Under the pieces are notes generated by a model, which saw nothing but the letters and a program-made list of their open reading frames with translations, was not told the DNA's origin and made no database searches. Shown in pieces: positions 1,630 to 10,885 of a DNA stretch of 14,401 bases. Each line of letters begins with the position of its first letter. Within the stretch, counting starts at the first letter, position 1. The position numbers and the translations under genes were made by a program. This DNA is from an uncultured archaeon (GTDB taxonomy: Archaea > Altiarchaeota > Altiarchaeia > IMC4 > SCGC-AAA252-I15): NCBI GenBank assembly GCA_902384455.1, contig CABMCB010000061.1, forward strand, positions 1 through 14,401, given 5' to 3'.

Positions 1630-2223
1630 TCAGAAGAGGTTACTGGCAGCACGTTGGACGGCAGTATCGGCTTGCGAGTCAGAGACGCCGACGTAGCACA
1701 ACGTGGATTTATAGGAGCGGTGCCCAAGGGCTTGCTGAACGTGAGCCAGATTCTCGCCAGCGGCTACCATGTGGGAAGCCAGCGAGTGCTTGAGTACACG
1801 AGGGTTGCGCTTCTCTTGCGGGATACCAGCCGCCGCCGCAACATCCTGAAACATACGCCAGAAGGCAGTGCGGTCCATTTCGCCGCCCTTCTGGGACGTG
1901 AAAACGAAGGTCGATTGGTCGTCGGCGGGGCGTTCAGCGAGCCAAGAGCGTAACGCCTTCTCTTCGTCAAGAAGGGGCACGCCACGCTGTTTGCGGAATG
2001 CCTGTTTGGTCTCCAACGAGTCTTTCAAACGGCGAATCGTCAACGCGTCGTTCTCTTTGTCGATGTCGGCAAAGGTCAATCCGCAGACTTCGCTTGCCCT
2101 CAGAGCGTGCCAATAACTAGTGCAAATCATAGACCATGCACGATTTGAGTGTTGACGGGCAGCCGCAAGCAGAGACAAGAGTTCATCGGGTGACAGGAAC
2201 AACATCTGATTGCGCTTTTTCAT
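1630..2223 (-). CDS. Tyrosine recombinase, catalytic-domain-only, FimB/FimE-like (197 aa)
   Basis: N-terminal FLSPDEL; box I HALRASEVCGL; catalytic-K region IRRLKDS; FVFTSQKGG; box II NPRVLKHSLASH; LGH and nucleophile Tyr in LGHRSYKSTLCY. No N-terminal core-binding or arm-binding domain. SD-like AAGGTG upstream. Confidence 0.92.
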   Translation of the reverse strand: MKKRNQMLFLSPDELLSLLAAARQHSNRAWSMICTSYWHALRASEVCGLTFADIDKENDALTIRRLKDSLETKQAFRKQRGVPLLDEEKALRSWLAERPADDQSTFVFTSQKGGEMDRTAFWRMFQDVAAAAGIPQEKRNPRVLKHSLASHMVAAGENLAHVQQALGHRSYKSTLCYVGVSDSQADTAVQRAASNLF

Positions 2224-3959: not shown

Positions 3960-4193
3960 ATGGCACTCACAACAATTAAATTCGGAAGGACAGAAGACCT
4001 CAGCGATTCCGCACTTGAACGCTTTCACAGACTGGCCAACACAGACTTGCAAACGAAGAACTGCCGCGCTCGGAGCGGCGATTTCCGCTGCACATTGGAC
4101 GCCCACCACCGAGAACTCGGGACGGCGCACGTTCACAGGAACGCAAACGGAACGCTTACTGCTTTTCGAATCGAGGCGAAAAACGATGAGTGA
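3960..4193 (+). CDS. Hypothetical protein (77 aa) with C/H cluster CRARSGDFRCTLDAHH...H
   Basis: ATG at 3960, 1 nt after the upstream stop; SD AGGAG at 3947-3951; start reassigned from the ORF-track 3870. Confidence 0.65.
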   Translation: MALTTIKFGRTEDLSDSALERFHRLANTDLQTKNCRARSGDFRCTLDAHHRELGTAHVHRNANGTLTAFRIEAKNDE

Positions 4194-4464
4194 TATCGGC
4201 CAAGAACTAACCGACATTCTTCTGCGACTTACAGCGACCGATGTTGAGTTGCTTCGCTCATTCATTCGAATGCAAGCGACTGGCGAAGCCGAAGATTTGG
4301 GTTATCTCGCCCAGAAGAAAGCAGCGCTTACAGCGAAAGCACTCCGAATCCTTATTGACGCCGAACTGATAGCCGAAATGGATGCAAGAGACGCTATTTC
4401 AAAAATCATGGAACTCATCGGCGAACTGGAATTCCGATGCAAGCAGGAGGAAATACACAAATGA
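4186..4464 (+). CDS. Hypothetical helical protein (92 aa)
   Basis: ATG at 4186 with GAGG upstream, overlapping the previous stop by 8 nt; translates MSDIGQELTDILLRL...; start reassigned from 3916. Confidence 0.7.
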   Translation: MSDIGQELTDILLRLTATDVELLRSFIRMQATGEAEDLGYLAQKKAALTAKALRILIDAELIAEMDARDAISKIMELIGELEFRCKQEEIHK

Positions 4465-8172: not shown

Positions 8173-8322
8173 ATGGCAAAACCTATTGAAGCAACACCCA
8201 TTCTGAAGGGCAAGGATGCGCGGGCACTTCTTGCGCGGTTGAATTCCGCCGTGATGACGCCGGAGCGGATGCAGTATCTTGAGTCGCTGGCTGCGGAAAG
8301 TAAGCGCAGCGAGAAAAAGTAA
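8173..8322 (+). CDS. 49-aa putative antitoxin of the GNAT toxin; not in the ORF track
   Basis: Translates MAKPIEATPILKGKDARALLARLNSAVMTPERMQYLESLAAESKRSEKK*. I recognise the MAxPIxxTPxLxGxDA start from small proteins that precede GNAT toxins. Ends 16 nt upstream of the GNAT start. Confidence 0.75.
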   Translation: MAKPIEATPILKGKDARALLARLNSAVMTPERMQYLESLAAESKRSEKK

Positions 8323-8338: not shown

Positions 8339-8872
8339 ATGCCTTTCCAGCCCCCTGCTGACCTCACAATCACAGATGCTGACCACGAAACGCAGGATAT
8401 AGCTTCGTTCACGTGTGGCGACGCGGATTTAGAAGATTTCATCAAGACTGAGTGTATCGCGTGGGGGCAACAGAGGCTTTCTGTAACCAAAATCGCCCTG
8501 CTAGACACCGCCGTGGTTGGGTATATAGCGCTGGCCGCTGACTCTATACCGCTGGAGTTAAAAGAGCGCGGGTGGCTACCTAGTGGCGTAACGACTCAGC
8601 ATATACCCGCACTGAAAGTGGGCCGACTCGCAGTTCATTCGGGTCATAGAGATGCGGACATCGGTACTGCCCTAATGCGCTACGCGCTCGGGGTGGCTTT
8701 TCGACTTAGCACTGACCTTCACGTCGGTTGTAGATGTCTCACTGTGGATGCGTATCCGGCGTCAGTTAAATTTTATGAAAAACTCGGATTCGTGAAAAGC
8801 GAGCATCGGTGGTTCAAGAAGCGGACCAACGCAGCTATGTACTATGACATTGTCGGCGGTCAGCCTTTTTGA
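8339..8872 (+). CDS. GNAT-family acetyltransferase, AtaT/TacT-like TA toxin (177 aa)
   Basis: Motifs FTCGDADLEDFIK, VVGYIAL, IPALKVGRLAV, IGTALM and VGCRCLTVDAYPASVKFYEKLGF are typical of aminoacyl-tRNA-acetylating GNAT toxins; start reassigned to the ATG at 8339. Confidence 0.88.
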   Translation: MPFQPPADLTITDADHETQDIASFTCGDADLEDFIKTECIAWGQQRLSVTKIALLDTAVVGYIALAADSIPLELKERGWLPSGVTTQHIPALKVGRLAVHSGHRDADIGTALMRYALGVAFRLSTDLHVGCRCLTVDAYPASVKFYEKLGFVKSEHRWFKKRTNAAMYYDIVGGQPF

Positions 8873-8879
8873 AGAGCAG

Positions 8880-9410
8880 CCGTCGTCGATTCTCTACTTG
8901 AGTCCCGTTTCTCCGACTTGAGGTCTCTACCTTGCATACCGAACAATCTTCGAGGTACTCTTTGACTGCGGTCGCCAGCAAATTCCGAGTGACCGCAACC
9001 AGTCAAATCTTTGACAATAGGTAATGGGGGCGACCCGACTTGAACGGGCATACTCTCGCTTAGCAGGTGAGCGCTCTATCCAGTTGAGCTACGCCCCCAT
9101 TGTCTAACCTCACGGTCTTTCGACCGAGCGTTAACGACTCTTCCCTTCAAATTTTCTTGTAACTCGGCATCAACCTGAAGGACGAGGAAGGTCATTCTGG
9201 TTTTTGCCGCAACTCCAAATACACTTTGAAAAAGCTAGGCTGCTTGATTTGCAGCCCTACTTTCTCAAAACGCGCGCTCATCTAAGCGCACGCTCTCGCT
9301 AGGTTTTTCGGTTAAAACCCGGGCCGGTTTCGTGGGTCTTGTCGCACGAACCCACCGCGAGAAGGTCTCGACGGGTCCGCCTGGCGCTTCCACGTTCCCC
9401 CGAATCTGTG
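8880..9410 (-). ncRNA. Putative large structured ncRNA containing a tRNA-like domain (boundaries approximate)
   Basis: No credible CDS. Consecutive stem-loops at 9358-9370, 9326-9352, 9302-9319, ~9270-9293, 9225-9269, 9136-9193, 9105-9133 (GAAA tetraloop on the minus strand), the tRNA, and 8961-9007. Several stems close with G-U pairs only on the minus strand. A promoter lies upstream. Confidence 0.55.
9025..9098 (-). tRNA. Non-canonical tRNA, anticodon GCT (nominally Ser) but class-I, Arg-like body; no encoded CCA
   Basis: GGGGGCG TA GCTC AACTGGATA GAGC G CTCAC CTGCTAA GCGAG AGTAT GCCCG TTCAAGT CGGGT CGCCCCC A. Perfect 7-bp acceptor stem, D-arm with G18G19, TTC loop, A15:U48, one A-C mismatch in the anticodon stem, 5-nt variable loop. 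Confidence 0.85.
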
Positions 9411-9823: not shown

Positions 9824-10885
9824 ATGGCAATCGGTTCACATACCATTCCCGCATTTTATCTCGCTCAGTTCGCCGAACCGAGCGGTGAGGACACGCGTAA
9901 ATGGACTCTGTGCGTGTACCAGAAAAACAAAAGACCGCGAATTAGTTCGACTGAGCGTCAAGGGTTTGAGAACGGATACTTCGGTCCGATTCGGGATGAC
10001 GGGAAAATTGATACGGATTCGGAAATCTCACTCGAACAATCGCTCAGGGATATTGAGAAGCGCTCTCAAGAAATGTTGGTTTGCGCCCGAAGTCCAGTAG
10101 CGGATTTAACGTCAAATCAAAATCGGAACAAACTGGCTTTCTACATGGGCCTGCTATTTGCGAGGGCCACGTCGAGGCAACGATTTTCGCGCGGCAATTC
10201 AGCCAAGCTGAAAGTAACGCTTGAAGAACTGATGCAAAATGAAGCATTTGTTCGCGACCTAGCAGATTTTTACAACAACAAACGCGGGGTTCCAACTACA
10301 CGGGAAGAGGCGATAGAGAGTCTTCGCAGTCAAGCGGATAGCCTCGTTGACCGAAAGTCTGTGCACAACGCATTTATCAGAGACCTTCAGACTCACGCAA
10401 ACCAGTGCGGGAGCTTGCTTTTCGAGAAATCATGGCAAGTCTGGGCAGCCCCGCAAGGAGTCGGCTTCATCACATCCGACAATCCAATCGTGAGTTTTGT
10501 CGAACTACAGCCCGGACTTTGGCATCCAGGCTACGGGTTTGGAAGGCCAAATGCGATAGTCGCCTTCCCGCTGTGTTCATCCGCGTGCCTGATGATGGGA
10601 ATTACGGGTCCAGAATATCGAGATGTGACAGTGGATGACGTAATTAGAGTGAACGAGACCGTAATCCGTTGCAGTCACAAGTTCGTGTATTCCCGAACTC
10701 ACGACGACCAGCTCAACACTCTGATTCAACAAATTGGGGGAACCTGTATCGCCGGAGTAAACGCGTTCGTTGGTCAATTTCCGAATTCAACGACACTAGA
10801 AGATTACCTGCGGAAGAAACTTGGCATGAGGCCACGCATCTTACTTTCGGAGCCTTCACAACCACAGTTTTCTAATTTCACCTAG
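9824..10885 (+). CDS. DUF4238-family protein
   Basis: N-terminal SHTIPAFYLAQF (HxxPxxYLxxF) and internal FITSDNP followed by FPL are the motifs of DUF4238. Confidence 0.85.
   Translation: MAIGSHTIPAFYLAQFAEPSGEDTRKWTLCVYQKNKRPRISSTERQGFENGYFGPIRDDGKIDTDSEISLEQSLRDIEKRSQEMLVCARSPVADLTSNQNRNKLAFYMGLLFARATSRQRFSRGNSAKLKVTLEELMQNEAFVRDLADFYNNKRGVPTTREEAIESLRSQADSLVDRKSVHNAFIRDLQTHANQCGSLLFEKSWQVWAAPQGVGFITSDNPIVSFVELQPGLWHPGYGFGRPNAIVAFPLCSSACLMMGITGPEYRDVTVDDVIRVNETVIRCSHKFVYSRTHDDQLNTLIQQIGGTCIAGVNAFVGQFPNSTTLEDYLRKKLGMRPRILLSEPSQPQFSNFT

Follow-up and report, generated by a model that had tools for sequence, protein, structure and literature searches.

A class-I tRNA gene with an arginine-type body and a serine anticodon on a contig resembling a mobile element

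Which amino acid would be carried by a tRNA that combines the body of a tRNA-Arg with the anticodon of a tRNA-Ser, and is such a gene maintained for this combination or is it a passing mutant? The question is raised by the single tRNA gene in the stretch of DNA analyzed here (the window, 14,401 nt), which ARAGORN calls as tRNA-Ser(gct) on the minus strand (9024-9099), as the original prediction had expected of annotation programs. The same prediction had seen an Arg-identity body behind the anticodon and had proposed a mistranslating or decoy tRNA.

Structure of the tRNA gene

The gene matches Rfam family RF00005 from 9098 to 9025, over model positions 1-71 of 71, with 59 bits (E 7.6e-11). Against a gathering score of 29 bits, this is a tRNA match far past chance. 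Its features are as follows.

9025..9098, minus strand: class-I tRNA gene of 74 nt with an Arg-type body and anticodon GCU, CCA not encoded (Rfam, ARAGORN and the cloverleaf from the sequence)
9062..9064, minus strand: anticodon G34 C35 U36, AGC on the plus strand, in the loop CUGCUAA
9064, minus strand: G34, the sole base different from tRNA-Arg(CCU) relatives with the same anticodon arm
9079, minus strand: A20, on which bacterial ArgRS chiefly depends, within the D loop AACUGGAUA (sequence, and the identity table within PMC9976931)
9058..9068, minus strand: mismatch of A30 (9068) and C40 (9058) inside the 5-bp anticodon stem CUCAC/GCGAG, from the mismatch marks of the Rfam alignment
9025, minus strand: discriminator A73, from the sequence
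9020-9024, minus strand: trailer UUACC, directly after A73
9018..9106, minus strand: leader/trailer complementarity lengthening the acceptor helix, with U-1:A73, A-2:U74, A-3:U75, two mismatches and three further pairs

The acceptor stem (GGGGGCG/CGCCCCC) is Watson-Crick paired at all seven positions, G3:C70 among them. The gene has U8 and A9, a D stem of GCUC/GAGC and a 5-nt variable loop, AGUAU, and the T arm reads GCCCG-UUCAAGU-CGGGU with a G·U pair at 49:65. By alignment, the tertiary-pair positions U8:A14 and G18/G19 with U55/C56 are kept, and A15:U48 is a compensated Levitt pair where the relatives have G15:C48. ARAGORN draws the acceptor stem with 8 bp; pairing is possible between the leader AAU and A73-U-U, and the leader and trailer form an inverted repeat with 87% complementary arms (9018-9032 and 9092-9106). 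Since the trailer UUACC follows A73 directly, the CCA end would need to be supplied post-transcriptionally. The cloverleaf, the anticodon GCT, the 5-nt variable loop, A20, A73, G3:C70 and the lack of an encoded CCA had all been described before and agree with Rfam, ARAGORN and the sequence, whereas the minus strand, the A30·C40 mismatch, the G·U pair at 49:65 and the pairing of leader AAU with A73-U-U had been missed.

The A30·C40 mismatch also occurs in five tRNA-Arg(CCT) and one tRNA-Ile(GAT) from metagenomes, and is thus by itself no sign of decay. The single-sequence minimum free energy fold (−31.2 kcal/mol, z −2.38) does not contain a cloverleaf. Such folds commonly miss the cloverleaf of tRNAs, and its absence carries no weight against the covariance-model match. 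We found no signs of decay except at position 34; the tRNA gene is genuine and its structure intact.

Identity elements and ancestry

tRNA-Ser usually has G73. Bacterial tRNA-Ser(GCU) also has a long variable arm, and the tRNA studied here, with its 5-nt loop in place of a class II arm and A73 at 9025, has neither of these features and resembles that group in nothing but its anticodon and its CUGCUAA loop. Given the short variable loop and A73 it is not a tRNA-Ser of the bacterial type, a point on which the first reading was right. The four other tRNA-Ser(GCU) genes of the assembly have the normal long arm and are 87-90 nt long.

According to the identity table within PMC9976931, the bacterial Arg identity set consists of A20, C35, U/G36 and A/G73; the same part of that source gives G73 as an antideterminant against LeuRS. 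With A20, C35, U36 and A73, the tRNA has all four Arg elements of that table, which bears out the predicted ArgRS identity set, and the nearest relatives that were found are all tRNA-Arg. In an unselected set of tRNAs, the A20-type D-loop motif was present in 13 of 23 tRNA-Arg and in 5 of 170 non-Arg tRNAs. At the position of the G3·U70 wobble pair that would mark a tRNA-Ala we found G3:C70. A naive-Bayes isotype classifier (262 of 369 correct on leave-one-out) gave only negative scores, with Ala at −0.6 and Arg at −6.2; its training set was small and mixed and lacked the pattern-fetched tRNA-Arg, which biases it against Arg. The anticodon GCU pairs with AGC/AGU and corresponds to none of the Arg anticodons (NCG, or U/C-C-U). 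The molecule is therefore a tRNA-Arg by its body and its predicted charging, and by decoding it is not. G34 need not act as an anti-determinant, as it is found in tRNAs with the Arg anticodon GCG on two contigs of the same assembly (C59 and C71); by analogy with these natural GCG tRNAs and from the identity literature, we infer that ArgRS would tolerate G34 in a YCU-type tRNA.

Sequence searches point to the origin of this body. A blastn search of the tRNA region against 50,697 phage records matched four, all of them annotated as tRNA-Arg. For one of these, from Streptomyces phage Wakanda, ARAGORN gave the anticodon CCT, and it likewise called tRNA-Arg(CCT) in the sole plasmid match, Pseudomonas sp. 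Leaf58 pBASL58. The 27-nt 5' half had 11 exact matches in genomes, comprising eight tRNA-Arg (seven ACG, one CCT), two tRNA-Asp and one locus at a contig end, and one in viruses, a tRNA-Arg(TCT). The E. coli search covered 5,426 genomes and gave a weak best match (E=2, 24 nt) in 5,425 of them, annotated as tRNA-Arg in 12 of 12 among the matches listed; it shares the D arm with the 5'-half search. When the anticodon arm was required to be exact, A30·C40 included, and the anticodon left free, seven metagenome loci were found: the five tRNA-Arg(CCT) and the tRNA-Ile(GAT) mentioned above, and one that is not a tRNA. All five tRNA-Arg(CCT) match AGAGCGCTCACCT-CCT-AAGCGAGAG, and within the anticodon arm only position 34 differs.

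The tRNA-Arg(CCU) of pBASL58, of Wakanda and of the five metagenomic arrays share with our gene the A20 D arm, C35, U36, A37, the 5-nt variable loop and A73, and the metagenomic ones in addition the entire anticodon arm except position 34. Their C34 reads AGG (Arg), whereas G34 reads AGC/AGU (Ser). Further, differences in the acceptor and T stems show that none of these relatives is an orthologue, and the gene studied here lacks an encoded CCA. The closest Arg relative is identical at 59 of 74 positions, is like the others no true orthologue, and comes from a neighbor list that the pattern searches biased towards Arg; no tRNA orthologue was present among the 40 relatives. As judged from these sequences, the gene most likely descends from a tRNA-Arg of the CCU isoacceptor type, known in bacteria and phages as the argW type. 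Because no Arg relative is a true orthologue, it can only be inferred when position 34 changed and in which direction.

The original prediction had asked whether GCT, A20 and the short variable loop are conserved together. They are not: homologs with a called tRNA carry CCT, TCT, ACG or other isotypes, and GCT is found in none, nor did we find conservation of GCU in the 40 relatives or in sequence searches of genomes, viruses and metagenomes. As none of these homologs is a true orthologue, the result weakens the proposal of a mistranslating or decoy tRNA without killing it. Its biochemical part is plausible, in that charging with Arg and reading of AGC/AGU are soundly predicted from the sequence; we found no sign that the GCU anticodon is conserved or selected.

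Genomic context and frequency of G34 variants

The contig looks like a mobile element of plasmid or phage type. It was placed in the bin of an archaeal MAG, and its composition groups it with phage contigs that were assigned to an archaeal MAG. Besides the genes described below, the element has a helicase-like ORF and a 553-aa ORF. The ORFs that flank the tRNA are intact, and translations of the contig's ORFs with the standard code give clean Pfam matches. AGY accounts for 94 of 265 Ser codons in these ORFs and the contents of Ser (7.4%) and Arg (7.9%) are ordinary. At this level of codon and amino-acid composition, nothing in the contig's ORFs points to recoding of AGY, and a tRNA(GCU) that inserted Arg efficiently would harm the element's own proteins.

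The neighboring gene at 8339-8872 encodes a GNAT protein and is convergent with the tRNA, its stop codon lying 153 nt from the tRNA 3' end; upstream of the GNAT gene is a 49-aa ORF. All 12 of its sequence matches in the PDB are acetyltransferases (E 4.7e-8 to 5e-3). One of them, 5zgn, is KacT by its database name. The entries 6GTP, 6G96 and 5XUN are cited by work on AtaT, the Salmonella acetyltransferase toxins (TacT) and KacT/ItaT, and those matches that can be traced are tRNA-acetylating toxins of toxin-antitoxin (TA) systems.

Neither an aminoacyl-tRNA synthetase nor a dedicated regulator is encoded on the contig. A simple scan upstream of the tRNA gave no sigma-70-like promoter, and inspection by eye no archaeal TATA element around −26, both being weak evidence. 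The tRNA 3' half is not repeated directly in the window, which therefore offers no evidence of an att site. A tyrosine recombinase (1630-2223, 197 aa), which lies 7 kb from the tRNA, is of the short Xer/FimB-like kind and no typical tRNA-targeting integrase. The GNAT protein and a DUF4238 protein have no close relatives in viral contigs, and DUF4238 is absent from the 40 relatives. PADLOC returned no matches in the window, and paralogs of the window's proteins were found neither elsewhere in the assembly nor in the fetched loci; their ESM Atlas matches serve as leads only.

To gauge how frequent G34 is in tRNAs of this kind, we searched viral contigs with a pattern combining an Arg-type D arm, CTxCTAA and a 5-nt variable loop. 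G34 was found at 17 loci, A34 at 21 and C34 (CCT) at at least 116. The similar counts of G34 and A34 are what untargeted transversions would be expected to produce. Among 80 sampled viral loci with position 34 left free, 77 had T, two C, one A and none G. In 401 bacterial genomes, one of them unpublished (G431), the pattern with free position 34 occurred in 359, and a variant with a purine at this position in none. Viral TCT loci of the Arg-type pattern are far more numerous than CCT loci.

Only three of the 17 viral G34 loci are cleanly intact, and the other 14 lack a fully paired acceptor stem. The intact ones are class-I tRNA(GCU) with A20 and A/G73, scoring 66 (L036), 57.5 (L033) and 53.6 bits (L025). 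Two of them reside in phage genomes that are rated 99-100% complete and have only two tRNA matches each, which would be odd for junk. In twelve further cases a viral contig contains a conserved core that resembles a tRNA and has the CUGCUAA loop of our gene, yet lacks an acceptor stem and thus cannot be charged. A non-decoding use of the loop in these cores is conceivable.

Explanations for the gene

We favor, with a probability of about 0.6, the explanation that the gene arose sporadically by a C34-to-G change in the anticodon of a tRNA-Arg borne by a mobile element and is not part of a conserved recoding system. A single substitution at the wobble position (C, possibly U, to G) would have turned an Arg anticodon into GCU. 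If transcribed and also matured by RNase P, 3' trimming and CCA addition, the tRNA would be charged by an ArgRS of the bacterial type, given that this enzyme reads A20, C35, U36 and A73 and not position 34. The charged tRNA would pair with AGC/AGU and insert Arg in place of Ser. Such a mutant would be recent, neutral to mildly harmful and still awaiting purging, and would not represent a maintained device for recoding, mistranslation or decoy. With a gene body that is intact outside position 34, the gene could equally be maintained, yet a selected role as mistranslating or decoy tRNA seems improbable to us.

The alternative that fares best, though we consider it unlikely, is a mistranslating or missense-suppressor tRNA that the mobile element keeps under selection. 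It would place Arg at AGC/AGU at a low level, diversifying or stressing the proteome, or would suppress an Arg-to-Ser (CGY-to-AGY) mutation in the element or its host. The intact cloverleaf with the compensated A15:U48 pair, the full Arg identity set, the location on a mobile element and the sparse intact Arg-like tRNA(GCU) of phages, of which two come from nearly complete genomes that have just two tRNA matches each, are in line with it. The lack of conservation in the relatives, genomes, viral contigs and metagenomes searched argues against it, as do G34 being no commoner than A34 in viruses, the 14 of 17 viral G34 loci without a fully paired acceptor stem, the normal AGY use of the element's genes, and the contig's lack of a dedicated synthetase or regulator and, by the simple scan, of a promoter. 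A natural precedent is tRNAProX of Streptomyces and Kitasatospora (PMC11415595, PMC10404621), which also joins the body and identity of one amino acid to the anticodon of another. It differs in forming a conserved family, encoded together with a ProRSx of its own, and in the odd features A33 and A15-A48. Our tRNA, in contrast, is a singleton for which we found neither a dedicated synthetase nor conservation, and it does not have the conserved mismatched anticodon and nearby synthetase of a tRNAProX-like system.

A role outside translation, as decoy, dedicated substrate or modulator tied to the GNAT gene of toxin type, or as uncharged mimic absorbing a tRNA-targeting enzyme, is very improbable. 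The 153 nt between the two genes, the resemblance of the GNAT protein to tRNA-acetylating TA toxins and the unchargeable viral cores with the CUGCUAA loop would fit. However, the two genes are convergent and therefore not co-transcribed, and as mobile elements commonly carry tRNA genes as well as TA modules, their adjacency is expected by chance. The passages we retrieved from the literature on such toxins report no GNAT system that includes a tRNA gene, and the tRNA has all that ordinary charging requires. A wider form of these proposals, which we doubt, holds that the element carries an ArgRS-charged tRNA(GCU) on purpose, as a tunable device for proteome stress or missense suppression or as substrate or decoy of an AtaT/TacT-type toxin, and that it belongs to a sparse, undescribed set of Arg-identity xCU tRNAs of phages and plasmids with a purine at position 34 (the 17 G34 and 21 A34 viral loci).

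It is also very improbable that the gene is an ordinary tRNA-Arg(CCU) whose position 9064 was misread in assembly or consensus or represents a minority allele. The whole anomaly does come down to one base in a metagenome-assembled contig, and the same anticodon arm with C34 is found in five metagenome contigs, but per-base consensus errors are far rarer than real G34 variants (17 viral loci from several unrelated lineages), and no other sign of poor assembly was seen, the flanking ORFs being intact. Finally, a genuine class-I-shaped tRNA-Ser, or a reassignment of AGY codons in the host, can practically be dismissed: class-I-like tRNA-Ser(GCU) exists in animal mitochondria (PMC8450103) and ARAGORN assigns Ser from the anticodon, but the mitochondrial type lacks the D arm that is present here. 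A tRNA with A73 and no long variable arm is not expected to be recognized by a bacterial or archaeal SerRS, the assembly already has its four normal long-arm tRNA-Ser(GCU), Ser/Arg content and AGY use are ordinary, and standard-code translations give clean Pfam matches.

If the gene is a sporadic mutant, as we favor, it adds one more anticodon-shift variant and a small data point on the persistence of potentially toxic variants on mobile elements, considering that viral contigs have 17 G34 loci, compared with 116 or more for CCT and far more still for TCT, and that none was present in 401 bacterial genomes. It also calls for caution in annotation, since the anticodon-based label tRNA-Ser stands against an Arg body with Arg identity elements. 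Should the gene turn out to be maintained and its product charged, then, as far as our searches of open-access full text and preprints show, no other natural tRNA of prokaryotes is described that places Arg at Ser codons. It would also be the first borne by a mobile element, and would bear on whether such elements manipulate the translation fidelity of their hosts.

In E. coli, a tRNA-Arg(UCU) was reportedly recruited experimentally to Thr(UGU) (by Saks and coworkers in 1998). Shifts of this kind between alloacceptors, or tRNA remolding, are treated in PMC3923123 and PMC4783518, and like our gene they involve a point change in the anticodon on a body closest to another isotype. In remolding, however, the new anticodon also switches the synthetase, whereas the tRNA described here keeps the Arg determinants C35 and U36, so that its amino acid should not follow the anticodon and mistranslation would be expected instead of recruitment. 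We dropped a comparison with 'superwobble' tRNAs with a 4-bp anticodon stem (PMC13092985), as these concern the loss of the stem's top pair and not an internal 30:40 mismatch. A parallel to remolding is seen in a phage tRNA(UGU) (L004), in which a D arm of Arg-like type is combined with our tRNA's anticodon stem in its canonical, C:G-paired form.

Structure and predicted identity of the GCU tRNA

ARAGORN finds a single tRNA in the whole window (contig C61, 14,401 bp, from an assembly of 2.41 Mb in 103 contigs), at 9024-9099 on the minus strand. It labels this gene tRNA-Ser(gct), as the original prediction had anticipated of automatic annotators. The Rfam tRNA model matches 9098->9025 over its full length with 59 bits (E 7.6e-11, gathering score 29).

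Elements of the tRNA, all on the minus strand
Acceptor stem: GGGGGCG/CGCCCCC, 7 bp, all Watson-Crick, with G3:C70 (hand reading)
U8 and A9: both present (hand reading)
D arm: stem GCUC/GAGC, loop AACUGGAUA; A20 is window position 9079
Anticodon stem: CUCAC/GCGAG, with an A30·C40 mismatch at 9068/9058
Anticodon loop: CUGCUAA; G34-C35-U36 at 9064-9062
Variable loop: AGUAU, 5 nt
T arm: GCCCG-UUCAAGU-CGGGU; 49:65 is G·U
Discriminator: A73 at 9025
3' trailer: UUACC, directly after A73, so that CCA is not encoded

The window thus encodes an intact class-I cloverleaf with A20, C35, U36, A37, A73 and the anticodon GCU. Hand reading, ARAGORN and Rfam bear out each structural item described earlier, and add the minus strand, the A30·C40 mismatch and a pairing of leader and trailer (inverted repeat I22) by which the acceptor helix can be extended. 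The Levitt pair is A15:U48, a compensated form of the G15:C48 of its relatives (alignment A1). Minimum-free-energy folding of the tRNA alone favours a structure other than the cloverleaf; tRNAs commonly fail to give a cloverleaf in single-sequence thermodynamic folding.

The proposal of an Arg body is supported by the nearest matches, which are mostly to tRNA-Arg, and by the identity elements. A blastn search with 8700-9400 against a phage collection matched four records (two Streptomyces phages, two accessions each), every time inside an annotated tRNA-Arg gene; in the one fetched, the anticodon by ARAGORN was CCT. The one plasmid match was tRNA-Arg(CCT) of Pseudomonas sp. Leaf58 pBASL58. The exact 27-nt 5' half (acceptor strand and D arm) occurs at 11 loci in species-representative genomes, 8 of them tRNA-Arg (7 ACG, 1 CCT), 2 tRNA-Asp and 1 cut by a contig end, and at one locus in IMG/VR, a tRNA-Arg(TCT). 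Among 5,426 complete E. coli genomes the sole match was weak (24 nt, E=2) and fell in an annotated tRNA-Arg gene in 12 of the 12 matches listed. Exact searches of metagenome contigs with the anticodon arm, requiring A30·C40 and leaving the anticodon free, gave seven matches: five tRNA-Arg(CCT) in tRNA arrays, one tRNA-Ile(GAT) and one non-tRNA. Since A30·C40 also occurs in these tRNA-Arg(CCU) genes, which look normal, the mismatch does not point to decay.

PMC9976931 gives A/G73, A20, C35 and U/G36 as the main bacterial Arg identity elements; for E. coli ArgRS it names A20 as the main determinant, and position 34 is absent from its list. The window tRNA carries all four (A20, C35, U36, A73). 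Among 193 distinct, unselected tRNAs (the rest of the assembly and tRNA arrays), the A20-type D-loop motif was present in 13 of 23 Arg and 5 of 170 non-Arg tRNAs. Archaeal tRNA-Arg genes of the assembly also carry a GGAUA D loop, and the conclusion on Arg identity is therefore independent of the host. In body and predicted charging the molecule is a tRNA-Arg, in decoding it is not, and we assign it to neither isotype. An improvised profile classifier (leave-one-out 262/369 correct), whose training left out Arg tRNAs fetched by our own patterns, did not favour Arg: it ranked Ala (−0.6) above Arg (−6.2), with negative scores for all isotypes. tRNA-Ala identity is excluded by G3:C70.

After transcription, maturation would require RNase P at the 5' end, trimming at the 3' end and the addition of CCA, which the gene does not encode. 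By established identity rules ArgRS would accept the product, and G34 would pair with C or U as the third base of the codon, so that Arg would enter at AGC/AGU. That G34 may be compatible with Arg tRNAs is suggested by the tRNAs with a GCG anticodon, hence Arg, on contigs C59 and C71. A simple scan found no sigma-70-like promoter for the tRNA.

The surrounding contig and its host

Genes and elements on C61
6-764, plus strand: truncated ORF, like the C-terminus of AAA_25/DnaB-like replicative helicases (an ESM Atlas lead only)
810-1045: cluster of direct and inverted repeats (TCACCGAACGCTTCGCCTATCG three times, AAGCGTTCGG and others), just after the helicase-like ORF
1630-2223, minus strand: short Xer/FimB-type tyrosine recombinase, 197 aa, catalytic domain alone
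Elsewhere on C61: collagen-repeat, tail-like protein
8173-8322, plus strand: 49-aa ORF with no family match, 16 nt upstream of GNAT
8339-8872, plus strand: GNAT acetyltransferase, 177 aa
Listed after the tRNA: DUF4238 and membrane proteins

These genes look like those of a plasmid or phage-like element, and the repeat cluster resembles iterons or an origin of replication. By eye, the recombinase has VLKHS where relatives show an HxLRH motif, and its second catalytic Arg may be replaced by Lys. GNAT has 12 sequence matches in the PDB (E 4.7e-8 to 5e-3), acetyltransferases without exception. Those that could be traced belong to aminoacyl-tRNA acetyltransferase toxins of the AtaT/TacT/KacT type; 6GTP, 6G96 and 5XUN are cited in papers on AtaT, the Salmonella acetyltransferase toxins and KacT/ItaT. 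The 49-aa ORF and GNAT form a candidate type II toxin-antitoxin pair; DUF1778, the usual antitoxin of such pairs, was not detected. Close relatives of the DUF4238 and GNAT proteins were not found in viral contigs, and DUF4238 was found in none of 40 related genomes.

The core of the assembly is archaeal, with ribosomal protein S8e on its largest contig and no bacterial L27 found. The bin also contains foreign DNA. Its sole SSU rRNA (C6:1064-2424, locus L180) fits the bacterial model with 1242 bits and the archaeal with 853, and this 2.9-kb contig is probably misbinned. C59 (99.9 kb) and C38 (36.7 kb) are tailed-phage contigs inside the archaeal MAG, both with genes for portal proteins and the large subunit of terminase. 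C59 further encodes a major head protein, DNA polymerase, helicase and ribonucleotide reductase. Together with C4 (69.2 kb) they carry about 25-37 tRNA genes each, mostly in dense arrays and most with encoded CCA, unlike the window tRNA; oddities among them are a tRNA-Phe(AAA), an 89-nt tRNA-Ile(UAU) and tRNA-Arg(GCG).

In a tetranucleotide PCA, C61 groups with C4, C38 and C59, apart from the archaeal core contigs. The AGR share of Arg codons is 0.23 in C61, 0.25-0.28 in these three contigs and 0.39 in the archaeal core; no proteins common to C61 and the three were found. The host of C61 is probably not the archaeon.

Frequency of G34 variants and origin of the tRNA

No orthologue of the tRNA was found in 40 genomes from the same family and order; a single genome gave matches at all, to a tRNA-Ala(UGC) with 73% identity and to a tRNA-His in its 5' part. 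For a base rate, an Arg-type pattern (D arm GGATAGRGC, loop CTxCTAA, 5-nt variable loop, GTTCRA) matched 17 loci in IMG/VR with G34, 21 with A34, at least 116 with C34 and at least 119 with any base, and in 80 fetched any-base loci position 34 was T in 77, C in 2, A in 1 and G in none. G34 variants are a small minority, about as frequent as A34 variants, as would be expected from untargeted transversions of UCU or CCU. Across 401 genomes from a single bacterial phylum (including one unpublished genome, G431), the pattern occurred with any base at 34 in 359 and with a purine in none.

ARAGORN calls a tRNA in 5 of the 17 viral G34 loci; 80 of 80 any-base and 20 of 21 A34 loci are intact by the same program. 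A full-length Rfam match with a clean acceptor stem is found in three G34 loci (L036, 66 bits; L033, 57.5 bits; L025, 53.6 bits), whereas acceptor pairing is defective in L039 and L034 and absent in the other 12.

The most likely reading, at about 60%, is a mutational variant of an ordinary though uncommon kind: a mobile-element tRNA-Arg whose anticodon mutated recently and sporadically, and for which no new role has been selected. The simplest history is a tRNA-Arg(CCU) lineage with a single C34 to G change. The mutant reading is favoured by the lack of conservation found, by the rarity of such variants and their purine symmetry, by the mostly disabled acceptor stems of the viral G34 cases, and because screening very many windows picks out exactly such rare events. 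Two observations speak a little against it. The phage genomes of L036 and L033, with completeness ratings of 100% and 99%, contain just two tRNA matches apiece. L025 lies in an AT-rich 89-kb phage fragment (G041) that carries a tmRNA besides 41 tRNA matches; the parts of it that were fetched (L183, L188, L192-L212) contain a long-arm tRNA-Ser(GCU) and a tRNA-Arg(ACG), and no tRNA-Arg(UCU) was seen in them. The class-I Arg-like tRNA(GCU) of L025 seems to occupy the Arg(UCU) slot, and the best explanation for it is a mutated tRNA-Arg(UCU).

In the original prediction of a mistranslating or decoy tRNA, the GCU anticodon is confirmed and the Arg body supported; a mistranslating or decoy system, though possible, is unsupported. 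A selected mistranslating or suppressor tRNA is unlikely: efficient mistranslation would be harmful to the element itself, and the ORFs of C61, where AGY makes up 94 of 265 Ser codons and Ser and Arg content is ordinary, give no hint of recoding in codon and amino-acid use. The tRNA resembles natural mistranslating tRNAs such as tRNAProX, but these are conserved and have a dedicated synthetase, and it has neither. The 49-aa ORF/GNAT pair is convergent with the tRNA at a distance of 153 nt. A role outside translation, as a decoy or as partner of the GNAT toxin, is quite improbable, and so is a base-call artefact at G34. A true Ser tRNA or codon reassignment can practically be dismissed, the normal bacterial or archaeal tRNA-Ser being ruled out by A73 and the missing long variable arm; four canonical tRNA-Ser(GCU) genes (87-90 nt) lie elsewhere in the assembly.

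As a mutational variant, the tRNA works like anticodon-shift variants, known mainly from eukaryotes and mitochondria (PMC3923123, PMC4783518); in contrast to true remolding, its amino acid should not follow its anticodon. In the open-access literature searched, we found no description of a tRNA from a prokaryote or phage that combines Arg identity with a GCU anticodon. Annotators will mislabel the window tRNA as tRNA-Ser, and its importance would rise sharply if G34 were fixed, conserved and expressed.

Other unusual viral tRNAs

The 21 A34 loci (L093, L160-L179; 13 distinct sequences) are Arg-type tRNAs with the anticodon ACU, an unusual one for bacteria; by eye, the anticodon stems of several are poorly paired.

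The 12 viral contigs without acceptor-stem pairing (L024, L026-L032, L035, L037, L038, L040) share a tRNA-like core with the loop CUGCUAA, in two sequence groups. The core (e.g. L027:4770-4829) comprises D, anticodon and T arms, reaches 48-50 bits with Rfam over model positions 7-64, and has three conserved hairpins on its 5' side and, on its 3' side, a hairpin and T run like those of a terminator. Its T stem has a compensatory A:U to G:C pair between the groups. In L027 its neighbours are a Rha/antirepressor gene and a SNF2 helicase, and no integrase adjoins it. Possibly this is a small phage RNA that contains a tRNA-like domain.

A further phage contig, L004, encodes at 10415-10490 (minus strand) a tRNA(UGU) whose D arm (GGAUAGAGC) is Arg-like and whose anticodon stem is the C:G-paired version of that in the window tRNA, likely an Arg-to-Thr anticodon shift. 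At 4036-4234 (plus strand) it has two tRNAs with the anticodon CUA, of the amber suppressor type.
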